NCBI GenBank assembly: GCA_044376115.1
Contig: JBILLK010000010.1
Span: forward strand, 64,001 to 128,000
Length of the DNA stretch: 64,000 nucleotides
DNA from: Polyangiaceae bacterium
Lineage (GTDB): Bacteria; Myxococcota_A; Polyangia; Polyangiales; Polyangiaceae
Reading direction: 5' to 3'
The translations under genes were made by a program, and so were the position numbers. This document shows positions 5,018-12,069 of this stretch, one piece after another; position 1 is the first letter of the stretch; the number at the start of each line of letters is the position of its first letter. The notes under the pieces are model-generated. The model made no database searches, was not told the DNA's origin, and saw only the letters and a program-made list of their open reading frames with translations.

Positions 5018-6553
5018 TCAGCGGGTGAGCGCGTCACGAGCGGCGTCGGCAACGCCTTCGTAGTGCGACTGTGTCAGCTGCGTGAGCATCTTCTTGGCGG
5101 CGGGATGCTCGGCGTGCCGACGCAGCCCGTTGAGCACAGCCCACGCCATATCGCTCGAGCCATCCTGGGTCAGGAGCTGGCCATAGAGCTGGGCGGCCTG
5201 CTCCGGTCGCATCATGACGGCCATGCTGCCGATACACTCGTAGCGAACCTCCGCTGAAGGATCTTGCTGAGCGGCTTGCTGAGCGAGGGGGAGCAATTGC
5301 GGGAGCTCCTCGAGGTTGCAAAACTGGAACGCCATCGCCCGCCGTACTTCCTCGTCTTGGTCGCTCATCAAGCGCGAGGCGAGCCCCCAGATTCGCTGGA
5401 AAGCCTCTTTGGGCAGACAATGAAGGCTGCTCGCGATCTCCTTCTTCACTTCGCGGTTGGGGTTTGCCGCGTGCTTCTCGAACACGGTCAGCGTGAGCTC
5501 GCCCATCCCGTAGTGGTGAGCGAAGGCGAGCGTCGACATGCACGCCGCCTGCACCTCGGCGCTAGGGTCTCGATCAGCCTGATTGGCGACGCCATGCATG
5601 ACTTGTTGGTCGTCTCGATAGCTGGAGAAGCCACCAATCGCAGCCGCACGCACCTGGGGATCCGGGTCCTGAGTCAGTGCGATCAGCAGCTCGCGCTTGC
5701 CATTGAACTTCTCCGCTGAGTGAAAGCGCAACCCGCTCGCGACTTCGCGTCGGATGTGAGCGTCACCCGCCTGGGCTAACTGCTGTACGAGCTGATAGGC
5801 GCCTTCCTCGGCGAACTTGCAGGCCGCCACGATCACCTGATCAAAGGTGGCTTGATCGAGCCCGGGGATGTTGGCGACGGCGTAAAGCGTCTGCAAGTGC
5901 TGGGGCTTTACTCGATTATCCACCAAGTTGGCCCAGGCCGTCAGCGCGGCGCGACGAACGTTGACCGTCCCCTGCGCCATCAAGTGAGACAGATAAGGCT
6001 CAATCTCCATTAGTTGCGAGCCCTCGGAGTAGCAGGCAATGAACAAGTCATTGAGCGCGTCCTCGAGTTCGTGCTCTTGCTGGCTTCGCAGAGCGGGATA
6101 GCGCGAGAAGATCTCCTCGATCGGCAACAGCCTGAATTCGTCATCGGAGGCGTCCACCACCTTGAGCTCTTTGCTGTCGCTCGGGTCCTTCACGCCGGGA
6201 ATGTCGGCCGCGGCCATGACCGTGTACGAGACGTTGTGCGCTGTGGTCTCGGTGCCGTGCGGAACGGTGAAGCGGAAGGCGAAGTTCTTGACCGACTCGG
6301 GCGCGAGGTCTTCACCAGCGGCCACCGTCTGAGTGAGTAGGATCTCGGTCTTGATGTCCGGCAGACTTTGACCTTCTCGCGAATGCACCGAGACAAAGAG
6401 CAGTTTGACCGTGAGTTCCGTGAGCTTGAGCGGCTTCTTACCGCCGTGCAGGGTGATCTTTCCGCCAACCACGCCGCCTGCCGAAGCCTGCGGAGTGTCG
6501 AGTGTCATCGTGAGTTTGGTTCCCCCGCCGAACATCGAATCGAGCATTCCCAT
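5018..6553 (-). CDS. Spo0M/arrestin-like N-terminal domain fused to HEAT repeats
   Basis: N-terminal beta-sandwich pattern (GKITLHGG...FAFRFTVP...ADIPGVKDPSD); repeated DPxxxVRxAA HEAT motifs. Confidence 0.7.
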   Translation of the reverse strand: MGMLDSMFGGGTKLTMTLDTPQASAGGVVGGKITLHGGKKPLKLTELTVKLLFVSVHSREGQSLPDIKTEILLTQTVAAGEDLAPESVKNFAFRFTVPHGTETTAHNVSYTVMAAADIPGVKDPSDSKELKVVDASDDEFRLLPIEEIFSRYPALRSQQEHELEDALNDLFIACYSEGSQLMEIEPYLSHLMAQGTVNVRRAALTAWANLVDNRVKPQHLQTLYAVANIPGLDQATFDQVIVAACKFAEEGAYQLVQQLAQAGDAHIRREVASGLRFHSAEKFNGKRELLIALTQDPDPQVRAAAIGGFSSYRDDQQVMHGVANQADRDPSAEVQAACMSTLAFAHHYGMGELTLTVFEKHAANPNREVKKEIASSLHCLPKEAFQRIWGLASRLMSDQDEEVRRAMAFQFCNLEELPQLLPLAQQAAQQDPSAEVRYECIGSMAVMMRPEQAAQLYGQLLTQDGSSDMAWAVLNGLRRHAEHPAAKKMLTQLTQSHYEGVADAARDALTR

Positions 6554-6632: not shown

Positions 6633-7010
6633 CTAGCGGCTACTCTCGCGCGAGTCCGCCATCGCTTGAGCCAAGCCCTGACTAAACTTTTGGCGGTCGG
6701 AGAGGATCGTAAGGTCGCGACCGATCACCAACGCTGACACGCTCAAGGCCATCGCTAGGACCTTGGACTTCACGAGGAAGACAGGGAAGACCAACTTTTC
6801 TTTGGTAGCTGCCCAGTCGCGGTAGGGCGAGCGCACCTCAGGGTCAAAGCCGGTGATACCCGTCCAGTCATGAAAGACCTGCAGCGTTTGACCTTTCATC
6901 AACAGGCGATCGATACGTTGCGTGTAGAAGTGCAGCGCGTCCAATTCGACGTGCCCGCTGACGCGGGTGCATACAAGCGTCGGCGTCAGCACCCAAAACA
7001 GCGCCTCCAT
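6633..7010 (-). CDS. Hypothetical STAS/SEC14-like small protein; start may be 7094
   Basis: RVSGHV...VFHDWTGITGFDPEVR...FLVKSKVLAMALS pattern typical of myxobacterial STAS-like proteins. Confidence 0.55.
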   Translation of the reverse strand: MEALFWVLTPTLVCTRVSGHVELDALHFYTQRIDRLLMKGQTLQVFHDWTGITGFDPEVRSPYRDWAATKEKLVFPVFLVKSKVLAMALSVSALVIGRDLTILSDRQKFSQGLAQAMADSRESSR

Positions 7011-7138
7011 CCGTTGCCCGGCCAAACGCTCGGCCTTCTCCTCGTTGAGCTCCACCCGGCGATGAGGGTAGTCCAACTCGCAGCCGATTCGCACCCCTTC
7101 TCACGCTAACGACGTGAATCGAGCGCAGCGGTCCTCCG

Positions 7139-8347
7139 TTAGCGCAACACACCCAAGCGTCTTCGAGGAGTCACGCGGCTGGGCTGCCAATTCGTCTCCG
7201 TTGCCGCAGGCTCGACGATGACGTCCCACTGCCCATGGTCGAAGGGAGAGCCATCTCCAACCGCAACAGGAACGAGTCGCTCACGCAGCCCCTGCTCCTT
7301 CATCTTGAGCGCGCGGTGATGGCAATACGGGTTATTGCCTCGCCGACCAAAGAATACGTGCGCTGTCCAGGAGCAACCGCCTTTGCAGATCGTGCGATAG
7401 TAGCAACCGCCACAATAGCCCCATAGCTCCGCCATACGGTCTTGGCGATTGAAGGTTAGCGCCGAAGCGTTTTGCCAAATCGACTCGATGCTTTGGCTGC
7501 GCACGTTGCCCCCGACGTAGCCCGCGGTTGGCAAGGAAGGGCAGCCCTTCACAGCGCCGTCTGCCTCTAGCCCAAGCCCGGCGATTCCAGCGTGACAGCC
7601 CTGGAAGTGGGCCACTTCTCCGGGCCGCGCCACCACACCGCGCAGCTCCTGCTCATGGGGCCCGAAGTATCCAACGTTGTTGCCTGGGAAAAGCCGCAGC
7701 CCCCCAGCCTTCGCTCTTCTCGCCAGCTCAGCCAACTTGGGGAACACGAGCAGAAGGTCCTCGGGTTGGAACAGCCAATCCGGATGCTCTTGGGCACGCC
7801 CCATCGGGACCGTCATAGCGACCTGCCAGCCGTGCGCCCCGTGCGCGAGGAACAGGTCCAACATCGCGTCGAGGTCAGGGAACGATAGGCGGTTGAGCTG
7901 GGAGTTAGCGGAGACAGGGACGCCGGCCTCACGCAGGTTCTCGAACGCGTTCACCGCCCGTTCAAAGCTGCCCACCACACCGCGTTGCACGTCATGGGTC
8001 TCGCCGATCCCGTCGACCGAGATGCTCACGCTATCCACGCGAGCGGCCTTGGCCGTGCGTGCCAGCTCCTTGGTAAAGCCGCGCCCGCCCGTCACCATGC
8101 TGCAGATCATCCCAGCATCCGAGATCGCGCTGGCGATCTCCGCCCAGTCTTCTCGAAGGTAGGCCTCACCGCCGATCAGCGACACTTCGCGCGCGCCCAT
8201 CTGGGCTAGCTGCGAAACGACGTCGAGCGCCTCCCGCGTCGAGAGCTCCCCTTCCCGCTTCTTGGCCGCTCGCGAGCCGCAGTGCCCGCACGCTAGATCG
8301 CAGGCGAGCGTCAGCTCCCAAACGACGTGCCGAAGGGTCGTTGCCAT
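7139..8347 (-). CDS. Radical SAM/SPASM peptide or protein maturase, splicease (PlpX)-like candidate
   Basis: VWELTLACDLACGHCGSRA (CxxxCxxC), IGGEAYLR, SVSISVDG; SPASM cysteines CHAG..GCPSL..CGGCYYRTICKGGC..NNPYC. Confidence 0.88.
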   Translation of the reverse strand: MATTLRHVVWELTLACDLACGHCGSRAAKKREGELSTREALDVVSQLAQMGAREVSLIGGEAYLREDWAEIASAISDAGMICSMVTGGRGFTKELARTAKAARVDSVSISVDGIGETHDVQRGVVGSFERAVNAFENLREAGVPVSANSQLNRLSFPDLDAMLDLFLAHGAHGWQVAMTVPMGRAQEHPDWLFQPEDLLLVFPKLAELARRAKAGGLRLFPGNNVGYFGPHEQELRGVVARPGEVAHFQGCHAGIAGLGLEADGAVKGCPSLPTAGYVGGNVRSQSIESIWQNASALTFNRQDRMAELWGYCGGCYYRTICKGGCSWTAHVFFGRRGNNPYCHHRALKMKEQGLRERLVPVAVGDGSPFDHGQWDVIVEPAATETNWQPSRVTPRRRLGVLR

Positions 8348-8359
8348 CGCACTTACCGA

Positions 8360-8782
8360 CTACTGCCGTTGCTTCGGATCGCGCGGGGGCGGGCCGTACA
8401 CCTTGACCGAGGGCTTCACGGTGGGCGCGGCGCTTGGAACAGCGCTTGGGGTGGCGCTCGCTGATGCGCTCGGGACAGGCGTTGGGAGCGGCAATTCCCG
8501 AGCAGACGGGTCTACCGGCGGAGGACCGTAGACGGCCACCATCTCATTCGGATTGGGCGTTGGTGCTGTATCAGCCGATTGGGCTGCGCTGGCGGAAACG
8601 CGCGCGTCCGGGTCGACCGGCGGAGGGCCGTAAACGTCATTGGGCGCGCTGCAGGCTGCGGCGAGACTGAGCACCGCGGTGAGCGCCAAAAGGTTGGGGC
8701 GACCACGCAGCCCGCAATGAGGACAGGCAACTTCAGCACCGAAGGCGTGGCAACCGCACGAGGGACAGACGACCAGCGACAT
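8360..8782 (-). CDS. Small Zn-ribbon lipoprotein with three VYGPPP motifs; putative rSAM substrate
   Basis: CPSC..H..CPHC, hydrophobic helix, lipobox-like LAAAC, three VYGPPP in an Ala/Ser/Pro linker; ends 12 bp before the rSAM start. Confidence 0.8.
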   Translation of the reverse strand: MSLVVCPSCGCHAFGAEVACPHCGLRGRPNLLALTAVLSLAAACSAPNDVYGPPPVDPDARVSASAAQSADTAPTPNPNEMVAVYGPPPVDPSARELPLPTPVPSASASATPSAVPSAAPTVKPSVKVYGPPPRDPKQRQ

Positions 8783-8805
8783 GGCCCGAAGTTACCACGC
8801 CCACC

Positions 8806-9135
8806 TTACTTTCGTTGATTTGGATCACGCGGCGGCGGACCGTAGACCTCGCTCGGAGAGTTGGCCGTATTGGGCAATTCGGTAGCCGACGGCTCGCTGG
8901 AGGCCGGCGCCGAGGCGGAGGCCGAGGTTGCGGCCTCGCGTGCGGATGGATTGACCGGAGCTGGCCCGTAAACACCTACTACATGGTCTGCGTGGTTAGT
9001 GCATCCGACCGCCGCCAAGCCCAACGCCAACGAAAGCGCAAGCAGCGTAGGCCTACCGCGAAGACCACAATGAGGACACTCGGCCTCACTCGCGAACGCA
9101 TGTCGTCCACACGAGGGGCAAACGATCAGCACCAT
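8806..9135 (-). CDS. Paralogous Zn-ribbon lipoprotein with VYGPAP and VYGPPP motifs; putative rSAM substrate
   Basis: Start MVLIVCPSCGRHAF aligns with the neighbour's N-terminus; lipobox-like AVGC; shared C-terminus VYGPPPRDPxQ. Confidence 0.8.
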   Translation of the reverse strand: MVLIVCPSCGRHAFASEAECPHCGLRGRPTLLALSLALGLAAVGCTNHADHVVGVYGPAPVNPSAREAATSASASAPASSEPSATELPNTANSPSEVYGPPPRDPNQRK

Positions 9136-9228
9136 GCGCTGAACCCTATCATGCGCGCAGCAAGCTCGTCTGCGGTCCGCAAGCCGTCTGATGCATCCAC
9201 CTTCGGCGGAATGGACTAGCCTGGGCGG

Positions 9229-10011
9229 GTGAAACGCACCTTCGTCATTGGCGACATTCACGGGGACATGTTCCACCTCACGCAGCTCATGGCCAAGCTG
9301 CCGCCGCTGGGAGCCCGCGATACGCTGGTATTTCTTGGTGACTACCTCGATCGCGGACCGGCCTCGGCTGGGGTCATTGAGTACGTTATGAGCCTCCCGC
9401 GAAAGACCCCCGCGCGGGTGGTCGCGCTGCGTGGAAACCATGAAGACGCCTGGTTGCGGGTGCTCGACCAAGGCTGGCCCGAGTTCGTCATTCCGCGTAC
9501 CAACGGCTGCCTCGAGACGCTGCGCTCCTACAAGCGACAGCCAGCACCTCAACCGGATGACGCGCCGGAGCCTCACGAGTTTGGCGAGATGCTCAAGGGC
9601 TCATTCTTCCCGCCTCACGTGGTCGAGTGGATGCGCAGCCTGCCGTATTACTACGAAGACGAATTCGCTATCTACGTGCACGCTGGCATTCCCAAGAAGG
9701 ACAACGAGTTTCGCCACCCGAGCATGGTCGAACCGAAGACCGCGCTGCTTTGGACGCGGGATAGCGACTTCTTCAGGAACTACCGCGGTAAGACTGTCGT
9801 CTTCGGCCACACCAAGACAGCGCTATTGCCAGCGGAGCTATCGCAGTACACGCCCGAGGATCCGGAAGACATGTGGGCGGGACCGGCGGTGCTCGGCTTG
9901 GATACCGGCTGCGGCAAGGGCGGGTTCCTCACTGCGGTAGAGTTCCCGCGCAAACGCGTCTACGAATCTCGCAAGCGCCGGCGCAATGCCCCCCCACGTA
10001 CCGTGCGCTAG
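9229..10011 (+). CDS. Calcineurin-like metallophosphoesterase (PPP-type Ser/Thr phosphatase family)
   Basis: GDIHG, GDYLDRG, RGNHE, VHAG, FGHT and LDTGC. Confidence 0.9.
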   Translation: MKRTFVIGDIHGDMFHLTQLMAKLPPLGARDTLVFLGDYLDRGPASAGVIEYVMSLPRKTPARVVALRGNHEDAWLRVLDQGWPEFVIPRTNGCLETLRSYKRQPAPQPDDAPEPHEFGEMLKGSFFPPHVVEWMRSLPYYYEDEFAIYVHAGIPKKDNEFRHPSMVEPKTALLWTRDSDFFRNYRGKTVVFGHTKTALLPAELSQYTPEDPEDMWAGPAVLGLDTGCGKGGFLTAVEFPRKRVYESRKRRRNAPPRTVR

Positions 10012-10013
10012 CG

Positions 10014-10877
10014 CTAATTATTATAATAAATGAAGTAATCGTCGCCGTTGGTGACGGTCACGTAGACGATCGTGTCGGCCTTGATGGCTGGGTCAATCAT
10101 GTCGTATGCGGCGACCAGTGATGCAGCGTGCTCGTCGGTCTGGGCAATCACCGCGAGAATCTGCTTTTCCCAGGCGTCTTCTGGAGCCACATTCATCGAG
10201 CTTTGAAGGATGTCGGAGAGCTTCCCCTCGAGCACATTGAGGGCTTGCGATACGGGGTAAGCCGTCCCCTCTGGGAAACTCACGGCGCGCACGACACTGA
10301 CCCCAACCTTCTCGCCGTCAATCCCCACGAGCAAGTCAGTCTTCTTGCCTTCAGTTTGGTAGACAATCTCGGCCTCGCCCTTGAGGTACTCGGCGCCTTC
10401 ACAGCGAAAGAGCACTTCATAGGCGAAGATCTCGGAGTAAAGCGAGCTACCCCCGAGGTTGCCATCGGCGAAGATCTGCTGGCCGCCTGGGCTGAGCATC
10501 TCCGGCTGTAGAGCCGGTTCACCACTAAGATCTAGCGTGTTCTCGAGATACTCGGGCGCAGGCGACGCAATATCGTCGAGATTGACCTCACCACAGGTGC
10601 CAGAGATCAGGCCGTAGTAGTCAGGCGCGCTCCCACCGGCGCCGCCTAGACCACCCTGCCCACCAGCGCCCCCCTGGGCGCTGCCGGCGCTGCCACCACC
10701 GCCGAGGCCACCTTCACCGCCAGCCCCGGCGCTAGCGCCCTCCCCCATCCCCGCGGTCCCACTGCTGCTGGAACCGCCGGAGGAGGAGCTGACCGGCGAG
10801 CCACCAGCGCCCCCCGAGCCTTCTCCATCGCCACAGGCCACGAGCGTCACCAAGAGAGATAGAGCGAGTGCGCGCAT
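10014..10877 (-). CDS. Gly-rich lipoprotein with an AAC4-like C-terminal domain
   Basis: Lipobox LVAC, Gly/Ser linker, then NLGGSSLYSE..YEVL..EAEIVY..KTD..VGVSVVRA. Confidence 0.65.
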   Translation of the reverse strand: MRALALSLLVTLVACGDGEGSGGAGGSPVSSSSGGSSSSGTAGMGEGASAGAGGEGGLGGGGSAGSAQGGAGGQGGLGGAGGSAPDYYGLISGTCGEVNLDDIASPAPEYLENTLDLSGEPALQPEMLSPGGQQIFADGNLGGSSLYSEIFAYEVLFRCEGAEYLKGEAEIVYQTEGKKTDLLVGIDGEKVGVSVVRAVSFPEGTAYPVSQALNVLEGKLSDILQSSMNVAPEDAWEKQILAVIAQTDEHAASLVAAYDMIDPAIKADTIVYVTVTNGDDYFIYYNN

Positions 10878-10916
10878 GGCCGGCACTATCTCATGAAATC
10901 GGCGATTTGCTAAGGC

Positions 10917-11957
10917 TCAACCAGGCTCGCACACGCCGTTCTGACATTGAAGATTGTTGCCGCAATCGTTGTCTTGAATGCACTCAACACAGTTGCCGTT
11001 CTCGCTACAGAAGGGTGACGCCTCGGTGCAATCCGCGTTCAGCAGACACTCGACGCACTCGAAATTGTTATCGCAAAGCGGCGCGCCCGGCTCACCGGCG
11101 CAGTCGGCGTTGTCGAGGCATTGCTCACAATTGTTGTTGGGTGAGCATACCGGGTTATTCCCGCCGCACTCCGCGTCTACCACGCACTCGACGCAGATGC
11201 CTTCTGCTGTATCGCAGGCCGGCTGCTCAGGGTTGGGGCAATCTGCGTTGGTTGCACAGGCGGCGACACAGTTATTGTTGAGGCAGAGCGACCCGCTCGG
11301 GCAATCCGGGTCGATGATGCACTCACGGCAGCGGCCGGCACTGACTTCACAATGAGGCTCTGCCAGAGCACATTCGGAGTCCATCGTGCACTCGGCACAA
11401 ATACCTAATTGGCTATTGCACAGCGGCTGCTCACCGGGGCAATCATTGGCGCTCAAGCACTCGACGCAGGCGCCAGTCGCTGCATCGCAGAAATCAGCCT
11501 GCCCTTGGCCACAGTCGTTGTTGCTCGTACAGGCCGTATCGCACTCGTGGTTGGTCGGGTGACAATACTGATTGGCGCCACAATCGGCGGTGGTCGCGCA
11601 TTCTTCGCATTGACCAAAGAAGCAGGCCGGCTGCCCAGGATCGAGGCAATCCGCGTTGGTAGCGCACTCCACGCAACCAAGCTCCGGGTCACAGAATTGA
11701 TTGACGTTGCATCCTGAGCAGACGTCTGTTCCGCCGCCGGTGCCGTTGCCACCGGTAGCGTTACCGCCGTTCCCTCCGTTGCCCATTCCCCCAGCGCCAC
11801 CGCCACCACTCTGCGTGCCCCCCGCGCCGCCAGCGCCAGCGGTACCGCCACCACTTCCCCCGGAAGCCCCAGTAGCCCCAGTGCCGGTCGAGCCGTCGTC
11901 AGAGCACGCAACCAACGAAAAGCCGAGGACGGCAGCGAGAAGCGAATAGCGCATCAT
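10917..11957 (-). CDS. Cys-rich repeat lipoprotein
   Basis: GGAGG RBS, lipobox LVAC, Gly-rich linker and about 11 CxEC-x4-DC-type units. Confidence 0.8.
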   Translation of the reverse strand: MMRYSLLAAVLGFSLVACSDDGSTGTGATGASGGSGGGTAGAGGAGGTQSGGGGAGGMGNGGNGGNATGGNGTGGGTDVCSGCNVNQFCDPELGCVECATNADCLDPGQPACFFGQCEECATTADCGANQYCHPTNHECDTACTSNNDCGQGQADFCDAATGACVECLSANDCPGEQPLCNSQLGICAECTMDSECALAEPHCEVSAGRCRECIIDPDCPSGSLCLNNNCVAACATNADCPNPEQPACDTAEGICVECVVDAECGGNNPVCSPNNNCEQCLDNADCAGEPGAPLCDNNFECVECLLNADCTEASPFCSENGNCVECIQDNDCGNNLQCQNGVCEPG

Positions 11958-12069
11958 GAGAACCTCCAATGAAGATTAGTGGGTTGTGCAAAGGCGCGCG
12001 GCCGCACCCCTGACTTGCCAAGGGTAGAGGAGCCATTCGCACTGCAGGCTCGGGAACGGAGCCTGTCAG

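Follow-up and report, generated by a model that had tools for sequence, protein, structure and literature searches.

A splicease-type radical SAM/SPASM enzyme paired with zinc-ribbon proteins bearing repeated Val-Tyr-Gly motifs and putative lipoprotein signals in a member of the Polyangiaceae

What does a radical S-adenosylmethionine (SAM)/SPASM enzyme do beside two small proteins whose tyrosines all lie in Val-Tyr-Gly motifs? This question is raised by a three-gene unit at positions 7139 to 9135 of a 64,000-nucleotide stretch of a Polyangiaceae genome (GCA_044376115.1, contig JBILLK010000010.1, positions 64,001 to 128,000 of the forward strand; the whole stretch is called the window). An earlier note on this DNA, made from the sequence alone, had proposed that the enzyme is a splicease, a type that excises tyramine from X-Tyr-Gly, and that it acts on two zinc-ribbon lipoproteins. 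The enzyme gene and two short open reading frames (ORFs), B and A, are arranged head to tail on the minus strand with intergenic gaps of 12 bp (enzyme/B) and 23 bp (B/A), and the tight same-strand cluster described in the note was thus confirmed by the ORF coordinates. That A and B are the partners of this enzyme we regard as highly probable. The features of the unit are as follows.

7139..8347, minus strand: radical SAM/SPASM enzyme of the splicease type, 402 residues (model scores, Pfam, identity to a Nostoc enzyme, tree placement)
8360..8782, minus strand: candidate substrate B, 140 residues, with a zinc ribbon, a signal with lipobox-type Cys44 and a Pro/Ala/Ser tail with three VYGPPP sites (sequence, homologue alignment, complex model)
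8714..8767, minus strand: zinc ribbon of B, Cys6, Cys9, His12, Cys20 and Cys23 (C20, P21, H22 and C23 invariant; C6, C9 and H12 in at least 90% of rows)
8651..8710, minus strand: B residues 25-44, Arg26 and Arg28, 13-residue hydrophobic run and lipobox-like L-A-A-A-C (sequence)
8600..8635, minus strand: B site 1, VYGPPPVDPDAR, with Tyr51 (sequence; most confident contacts in the complex model)
8498..8533, minus strand: B site 2, VYGPPPVDPSAR, with Tyr85 (sequence, alignment)
8366..8401, minus strand: B site 3, VYGPPPRDPKQR, with Tyr129, C-terminal (sequence, alignment)
8806..9135, minus strand: candidate substrate A, 109 residues, architecture as in B, Cys45, two VYGP(A/P)P sites (sequence, alignment)
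9067..9120, minus strand: zinc ribbon of A, Cys6, Cys9, His12, Cys20 and Cys23 (sequence, alignment)
9001..9063, minus strand: A residues 25-45, Arg26 and Arg28, hydrophobic run and lipobox-like A-A-V-G-C (sequence)
8938..8973, minus strand: A site 1, VYGPAPVNPSAR, with Tyr56 (sequence)
8812..8847, minus strand: A site 2, VYGPPPRDPNQR, with Tyr98, C-terminal (sequence)

Both small proteins begin M-x-L-(V/I)-V-CPSCG(R/C)HAF-x5-CPHCGLRGRP. This zinc ribbon is followed by a hydrophobic run of 13-16 residues, which ends in A-A-A-C in B (Cys44) or A-V-G-C in A (Cys45), and then by an Ala/Ser/Pro-rich tail. The layout is the one given in the earlier note (CPSC-x-x-H...CPHC, a hydrophobic stretch to a lipobox-like Cys, and a low-complexity tail with VYGP(P/A)P islands). 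The tails hold five copies of a 12-residue motif, V-Y-G-P-(P/A)-P-x-x-P-x-x-R. Their Tyr-Gly codons stand exactly at the noted positions 8393, 8525, 8627, 8839 and 8965, and the translations confirmed that no other tyrosine occurs in either protein. When the joined tails (160 residues) were shuffled 200,000 times, all five tyrosines were followed by glycine in none of the shuffles. The five motifs are encoded with different synonymous codons, which indicates that the peptide is conserved and that the repeats are not a recent DNA duplication.

Searching a large protein collection with B yielded 17 relatives, one of which was the window's own shorter form. With this form left out, A, B and the 16 relatives gave an alignment of 18 rows, in which the four ribbon cysteines, His12, Phe14, the Cys after the hydrophobic run, two to three V-Y-G-P-P-P-x-D-P-x-x-R units and the final Arg are conserved. 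The CPHC of the ribbon and Y85, G86, Y129 and G130 (B numbering) are invariant. The linkers between the units vary freely, and the units are the only conserved islands of the disordered tail. Neither Pfam nor NCBIfam assigned A or B to a family beyond faint zinc-ribbon matches, and the relatives found in the Protein Atlas belong only to unnamed Myxococcota clusters. A homologue, P0083, is present in the cultivable Sandaracinus amylolyticus.

The enzyme has the N-terminal motif VVWELTLACDLACGHCGSRA, with CX3CX2C at C16, C20 and C23, the C-terminal signature motif GGCSWTAHVFFGRRGNNPYC, and a full SPASM domain with seven cysteines (C251, C269, C312, C315, C321, C325 and C342). It matched the Pfam models Radical_SAM (76 bits) and SPASM (27.7 bits). 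Over nearly its whole length it also matched two NCBIfam families, TIGR04103 (nif11-class peptide radical SAM maturase 3, PlpX type) with 491.3 bits against a cut-off of 725, and TIGR03913 (GDL motif peptide-associated maturase) with 424.3 bits against a cut-off of 591.75; the next family, heme b synthase AhbD, gave 164 bits, and PqqE gave 96 bits. No copy over the TIGR04103 cut-off was found in any of 21 related genomes. These scores were calibrated with annotated members of the two families taken from plasmid records. The reference enzyme of Nostoc sp. C057 scored 853 bits on TIGR04103 and 415 bits on TIGR03913, and that of Azospirillum sp. B510 scored 760.6 bits on TIGR03913 and 439 bits on TIGR04103. 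The distance of the window enzyme from each named family is therefore roughly that between the two, and judged by these scores it is a third, unnamed sister branch.

Direct alignment gave 49% identity and 68% similarity to the Nostoc TIGR04103 enzyme over 381 residues; for the DUF1843-linked TIGR03913 type, the identity was 46.5% in a search. The stretches common to the Nostoc and window enzymes include VWE(L/I)TLxCxLACxHCGSRA and GGCxWTAHVFFxRRGNNPYCHHRAL, which bears out the noted resemblance of these motifs to the PlpX-type family. In a quick maximum-likelihood tree of 73 rows, with matches shorter than 300 residues left out, one group of 67 rows (Shimodaira-Hasegawa-like approximate likelihood ratio support 92) took in the window enzyme, all myxobacterial copies, the Nostoc TIGR04103 member and two DUF1843-linked enzymes, one of which passes TIGR03913; six other radical SAM/SPASM proteins fell outside. 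The reference enzymes are nested among enzymes linked to zinc-ribbon proteins. No grouping with AhbD, NirJ or PqqE, which would have spoken for a family acting on other substrates, appeared in either the profile scores or the tree. The Protein Data Bank returned no splicease structure, its nearest entries being SkfB (70 bits) and PqqE (57 bits).

The strongest evidence for the pairing is its recurrence. The host genome (10.1 Mb, 94 contigs) carries nine copies of the enzyme with 45-52% mutual identity, and these paralogues and their candidate substrates are found on contigs C4, C32, C39, C43, C57, C74 and C84 (C numbers denote contigs of this genome, and L numbers the loci that were compared). 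Eight of the nine adjoin an ORF with a zinc ribbon, a hydrophobic run, a Cys and a low-complexity tail in which tyrosine occurs in X-Tyr-Gly. The tail motifs are otherwise wholly different, reading RYGIAP, KYGMPP, IYGASE, AYG(A/S)GP, CYGGGY, EYGVPA/DYGVPG and AYGAPG. Over a set of 67 candidate substrates, Tyr-Gly is mostly followed by (A/P)-P-P, and the enrichment of Tyr-Gly itself is inflated in this set, since it was the entry criterion. An unbiased count came from the host genome with Tyr-Gly not required: 20 segments combine a zinc ribbon, a hydrophobic run and a Cys, and 16 of them have Tyr-Gly in the tail. Eight of these 16 are within 3 kb of an enzyme copy, a zone that by our own arithmetic covers about 0.6% of the genome. 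Seven are more than 3 kb from any enzyme, including one false match in a Cys-rich repeat protein, and the pattern missed two real substrates beside the paralogue at C57:132263. The genome thus holds about seventeen candidate substrates for nine enzymes, a great expansion in which every enzyme goes with an X-Tyr-Gly context of its own. Among the orphans are PYGAPP proteins located 23 kb from the sole enzyme copy without a neighbour (C43:447973). This copy groups in the tree with PYGAPP-linked enzymes of other genomes and is thereby predicted to act on these orphans.

The pairing is also found beyond the host genome. All ten genomes of the same genus have enzyme copies, three to nine in each. 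A profile of the small protein found matches in 38 of 401 genomes of the phylum, and 19 of the 29 loci it returned have an enzyme gene within flanks of about 1.5 kb; at several of the remaining loci, tandem arrays of up to six substrate genes fill the flank. Starting from the enzyme, we examined 41 loci of at least 46% identity in species-representative genomes. A partner ORF was recognised by a strict pattern in 25 of them and by a looser pattern in three more (L061, L062 and L074), and at L066 the same C-terminal motif occurs in a frame without a recognisable ribbon. The pattern also missed true partners at L032 and L019, so that "none found" as a tree label is in part an effect of the pattern. 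The earlier note had named the lack of neighbouring Tyr-Gly ORFs beside homologues as a result that would speak against its proposal; such ORFs were present beside eight of the nine paralogues in the host genome and at no fewer than 25 of the 41 related loci. A metagenome search with B alone brought no relative, and one with a smaller alignment brought 15 loci. Among the metagenome contigs with VYGP substrates, the enzyme follows downstream in all three that have downstream sequence, and a fourth contig stops short of that region. L122 and L123 seem to come from a single organism with three substrates in tandem, and L124 is the third VYGP contig.

Enzyme clades track the residue before Tyr-Gly and the substrate motif. 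The window enzyme belongs to a clade of five rows (support 99), together with L046, L048 and L036, all of which have VYGP substrates, and with L047, for which no partner was found; other clades go with PYGAPP(A/V)R, AYG(A/G)PP, (F/I)YGA and further motifs. L047 has the closest enzyme without a zinc-ribbon partner (66% identity), and beside it, at 5482-6474, lies a repetitive protein of 330 residues, whose signal looks ordinary and which has three Tyr-Gly sites (EVYGD, SYGGG and TYGNL); it might be an alternative substrate. At L039, two zinc-ribbon lipobox proteins beside an enzyme copy read D-Y-S in place of X-Y-G, and this may be a natural variant of the site.

How could the enzyme recognise these proteins? 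A complex was modelled from the enzyme (48-row alignment), residues 1-65 of B (18-row alignment), SAM and three 4Fe-4S clusters. Its median score, 0.86, compares with 0.00 for the best of three controls. Of 157 solved complexes, 116 reached this mark, as did 2 of 215 mismatched pairs; the calibration is only rough here because of the riding ligands and the custom alignments. The runs share at least 75% of their contacts, and the predicted local distance difference test (pLDDT) value of the partner is at least 68. The most confident contacts join Tyr51, Gly52, Pro53 and Pro54 of B to enzyme residues 9, 56, 58, 83-85, 108, 146-148, 173-175 and 220, and Tyr51-Gly52 is placed inside the barrel. 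Contact residues that are invariant in the enzyme alignment include V9, I58, M84, S108, N148, W174 and Q175. Residues 1-5, 9-12 and 21 of the ribbon touch the enzyme at 228-249, a stretch that lies between the barrel and the SPASM domain. Some of the tightest contacts are those of His12, a nearly invariant residue, with enzyme residues 228, 232, 233 and 247. The model thus supports, though it does not demonstrate, binding of B by the enzyme.

AlphaFold models of known spliceases likewise place the XYG site in the active centre, with a helix of the leader or of the Y protein binding and activating the enzyme (PMC11414181). In the window system the zinc ribbon probably takes the place of that helix, as the modelled contacts suggest. 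If the ribbon plays the leader, A and B are not leaderless substrates. The lipoprotein reading of the earlier note fits the sequence. At five loci (L127, L129, L131, L132 and L133), same-clade enzymes of about 41-54% identity are followed by a small zinc-ribbon protein without a hydrophobic signal and without Tyr-Gly, whose tyrosines lie inside the ribbon. This protein may act as an activator on its own or be another sort of substrate, and these loci point the same way as the ribbon-docking model.

Taken together, the unit suggests the following course, to which as a whole we give about an even chance. The zinc ribbon of A or B would dock as a leader on the enzyme in the cytoplasm, and each V-Y-G-P-P-P-x-D-P-x-x-R stretch would enter the barrel in turn. 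The enzyme would most likely remove a tyramine unit (C8H9NO) from the backbone at X-Tyr-Gly, as its characterised relatives do, leaving a valine-derived alpha-keto-beta-amino acid (a ketoamide) followed by Gly-Pro-Pro-Pro. By analogy with these relatives, for which a loss of 135.06 Da at XYG is reported (PMC11626197; PMC11414181), we hold tyramine excision to be likely. Since radical SAM enzymes are expected to be active in the cytoplasm, the modification would precede export. The modified proteins would then be exported by Sec and lipidated by Lgt on Cys44 (B) or Cys45 (A), and the cut by signal peptidase II (Lsp) would take off the zinc ribbon along with the signal. Leader removal and export would in this way both fall to the general lipoprotein pathway, whereas other spliceotide clusters rely on dedicated peptidase-transporters for them; peptidase-containing transporters are reported for some of them (PMC10885120). 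The final product would be a disordered stalk, rich in proline and anchored by lipid, that carries two or three ketoamides, one of them at the very C-terminus of each protein. Most plausibly, it would bind or block proteases of the serine or cysteine class at the envelope. Spliced products are reported to inhibit proteases of both kinds, which unspliced peptides do not (PMC11626197; PMC9811515), and on this analogy the role is possible, though doubtful. In its broadest form the idea would be a pathway resembling those of ribosomally synthesized peptides with post-translational modifications (RiPPs) that borrows the lipoprotein machinery, with a ribbon before the signal serving as leader for backbone splicing, Lsp removing both in one cut, ketoamides displayed on envelope lipoproteins, and backbone splicing as a general decoration of the myxobacterial surface. 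We put this forward tentatively.

The lipoprotein fate of A and B is favoured, by a small measure, by their sequences. Lipoprotein-type features are Arg26 and Arg28, a hydrophobic run of 13-16 residues and small residues before the Cys, which stands at 44 or 45 behind a 24-residue ribbon. A custom lipobox-like pattern fits 53 of the 67 candidate substrates. The host genome has three matches to signal peptidase II (Peptidase_A8) and four to LGT over the cut-offs, two of the LGT matches being pieces of one open frame. At C14:224105-226420, an Lgt gene adjoins two genes for signal peptidase II, and one more Lsp gene, the third, is found elsewhere, so the lipoprotein-processing genes are themselves multiplied in this genome.

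Several paralogous or related substrates carry envelope-type domains, namely OmpA family (30.7 bits, cut-off 27.2), CarboxypepD_reg (46.2 bits, cut-off 32.3) and a MopE-type metal-binding motif (32.6 bits, cut-off 27). A paralogous substrate at C74:4659-5393, seen through L013, has one I-Y-G site directly before the OmpA-family domain. Another class with zinc ribbon and signal (L059, L061, L062, L067, L069, L070, L072, L074, L080, L082 and L083) ends in (K/M/T)-P-Y-G-A-P-P-(A/V)-R-R-R-x-V. In this class the single site stands at the C-terminus of a folded protein, the genes often form tandem arrays of up to five, and the checked members have a CarboxypepD_reg domain after the signal (L061 over the Pfam cut-off, L074 just below it). 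In a third class (L029, L030, L033 and L040, and C12, C57:93684-94724 and C59 of the host genome), the lipobox Cys itself precedes Tyr-Gly (..A-C-Y-G-P..), and most of the relatives' copies end in the MopE-type motif.

The window unit was compared with four known systems. The type I spliceotide systems (PlpX/PlpY/PlpA and PcpXYA of Pleurocapsa, TIGR04103), for which the plasmid locus L117 of Nostoc sp. C057 stands as the example, have an enzyme of the window enzyme's clade with the same N-terminal and C-terminal signature motifs. Their target is likewise X-Tyr-Gly with prolines, the Nostoc Nif11 precursor ending in ...IALYGLPPELF where the window has VYGPPP, and several sites per precursor are possible (PMC11414181), as in the window. 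However, type I precursors have a Nif11/NHLP leader, which A and B lack, and the window substrates have a zinc ribbon and a lipoprotein-type signal instead. Type I systems also include a small Y partner resembling a RiPP recognition element (RRE). A 153-residue ORF at 6633-7094 (minus strand, 44 bp downstream of the enzyme gene) was considered for this part and rejected, as it has no Pfam match and is unrelated to the protein in the Y position of Nostoc. Of the loci compared, just L046 and L108, the closest two, retain it (81% identity), and it is probably not part of the system.

The binary, or type II, spliceases of Rheinheimera (RhaX/RhaA and RcsX/RasX), compared by description only, consist of an enzyme and a precursor without a Y protein, as does the window unit. 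In these, a precursor segment upstream of the core attaches to the enzyme and activates it (PMC11414181; PMC11626197). Their activating element is an alpha-helix of a peptide leader, whereas the predicted contact element of the window is a four-Cys zinc ribbon, and their products are small disulfide peptides, whereas A and B are lipobox proteins. The DUF1843/GDL-motif systems with a TIGR03913 maturase (Azospirillum sp. B510, L118; Aureibacter, L120) have an enzyme in the window's clade and small tandem precursor genes upstream of it, each with one X-Tyr-Gly (RPYGPAM or AAYGDVP). In contrast to the unit described here, the enzyme is longer (516 residues), and the precursors belong to DUF1843, as A and B do not, and are cytoplasmic-looking and helical, without zinc ribbon or signal. 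With LYGLPP, RPYGPAM and AAYGDVP in the references, the window site has the same shape as in the named families. TIGR04133, a radical SAM/SPASM family named for its genetic link to a putative lipoprotein, was compared by model score only and is distant from the window enzyme (154 bits, cut-off 425).

Several observations weigh against the course proposed above. The enzyme stays below the curated cut-offs of both TIGR04103 and TIGR03913, and at about 49% identity to its relative the chemistry could differ. The deep forks of the tree are weakly supported (81-92 by the quick method), and to this is added the rough calibration of the complex model. No partner ORF was seen within the flanks at 12 or 13 of the 41 related loci. 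In ordinary lipoprotein signals the lipobox Cys comes earlier than residue 44 or 45. A folded zinc ribbon before a signal peptide is unusual, and it could stay in the cytoplasm as part of a membrane anchor. L031 has no Cys after the hydrophobic run. Where Cys is the X of X-Y-G (L029, L030, L033 and L040), the same residue would have to be both lipidated and made into a beta-residue, which is awkward.

Four other explanations have to be set beside this evidence. The same enzyme might act on the same tyrosines by another chemistry, a cross-link, a hydroxylation or another radical rearrangement, with no tyramine excision. SPASM enzymes such as PqqE act on tyrosine otherwise, and both the missed cut-offs and the identity of at most about 49% to an annotated PlpX-family member leave room for this, as do the relatives at L039 with Tyr-Ser where others have Tyr-Gly. 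However, the Nostoc Nif11 precursor has a core of the same X-Y-G-x-P-P shape, the clade encloses the reference enzymes, the window enzyme's scores on the two named families match those that members of each give on the other, and 27 splicease-substrate pairs from many lineages are reported as confirmed (PMC10849128). We consider another chemistry unlikely. Chance proximity, with the small ORFs not being substrates at all, is exceedingly improbable in view of the eight of nine paralogous loci and the many other genomes in which the pairing recurs, the correspondence between enzyme clades and substrate motifs, and the difference in score between the complex model and its controls.

The other two explanations concern what becomes of the modified protein. 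Membrane attachment without lipidation, by an uncleaved signal anchor that leaves the ribbon in the cytoplasm and the modified tail in the periplasm, would explain why the Cys at residue 44 or 45 comes late for a lipoprotein signal and why some relatives (L031) lack it. A zinc-binding cytoplasmic head with one membrane span is common in anti-sigma factors. However, the hydrophobic run, at only 13-16 residues, is short of the length of a normal membrane span, most relatives have a Cys at its end in a setting that is lipobox-like in 53 of 67, and the residues before this Cys are small, as in lipoboxes; we consider a signal anchor quite unlikely. Alternatively, A and B could be multi-core precursors whose tails are cut after export, for example after the Arg that ends each motif, to free short soluble ketoamide peptides, with the lipobox and signal serving for export only. 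Conserved sites between free linkers are the usual look of multi-core RiPP precursors, and here a conserved Arg closes each site and the linkers vary freely. The known spliceotides, moreover, are small peptides (PMC11626197). Against such processing, the unit contains no protease gene, the last site lies at the very C-terminus, and paralogous substrates have a single site beside folded envelope domains (OmpA, CarboxypepD_reg), which fits a modified protein better. We regard it as improbable, and the spliced, lipid-anchored protein remains the reading that we prefer.

What would be new here is the substrate architecture, the proposed leader element and the proposed route for export and leader removal; the splicease chemistry and the enzyme family are already known. 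PlpX-like enzymes with Tyr-Gly-rich neighbours are reported from 189 genera, with 27 pairs confirmed (PMC10849128). "Spliceotide" together with "lipoprotein" was not found in the full-text literature, whose coverage does not include the main splicease survey (Scott 2022), which may list myxobacterial types. "Zinc ribbon" occurred in no splicease paper in full text among the matches listed; one further match, PMC2034487 (2007), predates the spliceases. The motif VYGPP, YGPPP or VYGP was not discussed in the literature, judged by titles among the matches listed. Tyramine splicing is known from small secreted peptides and engineered proteins, and the final products of spliceotide pathways in their native hosts are described as still elusive (PMC9811515). 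If the proposed course is true, the natural products here would be envelope lipoproteins with several ketoamides, a backbone change on surface proteins on a large scale in one bacterial group, and they would point to protease control at the surface of predatory, protease-secreting bacteria. The zinc ribbon would be a compact and genetically separable candidate element for recognition or activation, which could serve protein engineering with spliceases (PMC11414181), and the nine enzyme-motif pairs of one genome form a natural specificity series.

The start of ORF A and the surroundings of the unit were also inspected. A longer form of ORF A, 256 residues from GTG at 9576, was rejected because most aligned homologues begin M-x-L-(V/I)-V-C-P. 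Both ORFs are kept upstream of the enzyme at L046 and L108. Upstream of ORF A lies one further feature.

9136..9228, no strand: spacer of 93 bp between ORF A and a divergent metallophosphoesterase gene, the presumed promoter region of the three-gene unit, judged from gene order

A sigma-70 promoter scan of the unit gave no promoter-like site, and a terminator scan gave one terminator-like site, inside ORF A, which is no more than in shuffled sequences. No gene for a protease, a transporter or an RRE, and none for a radical SAM epimerase, was seen among the neighbours examined. These neighbours encode an acyl-CoA dehydrogenase, a HEAT/Spo0M protein, the metallophosphoesterase and two unrelated putative lipoproteins. 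The last two, at 10014-10886 and 10917-11969 (minus strand), have no Pfam match; one has a Gly/Ser-rich linker, and the other has a long Cys-rich array of C-x-x-C repeats behind a Gly-rich linker.

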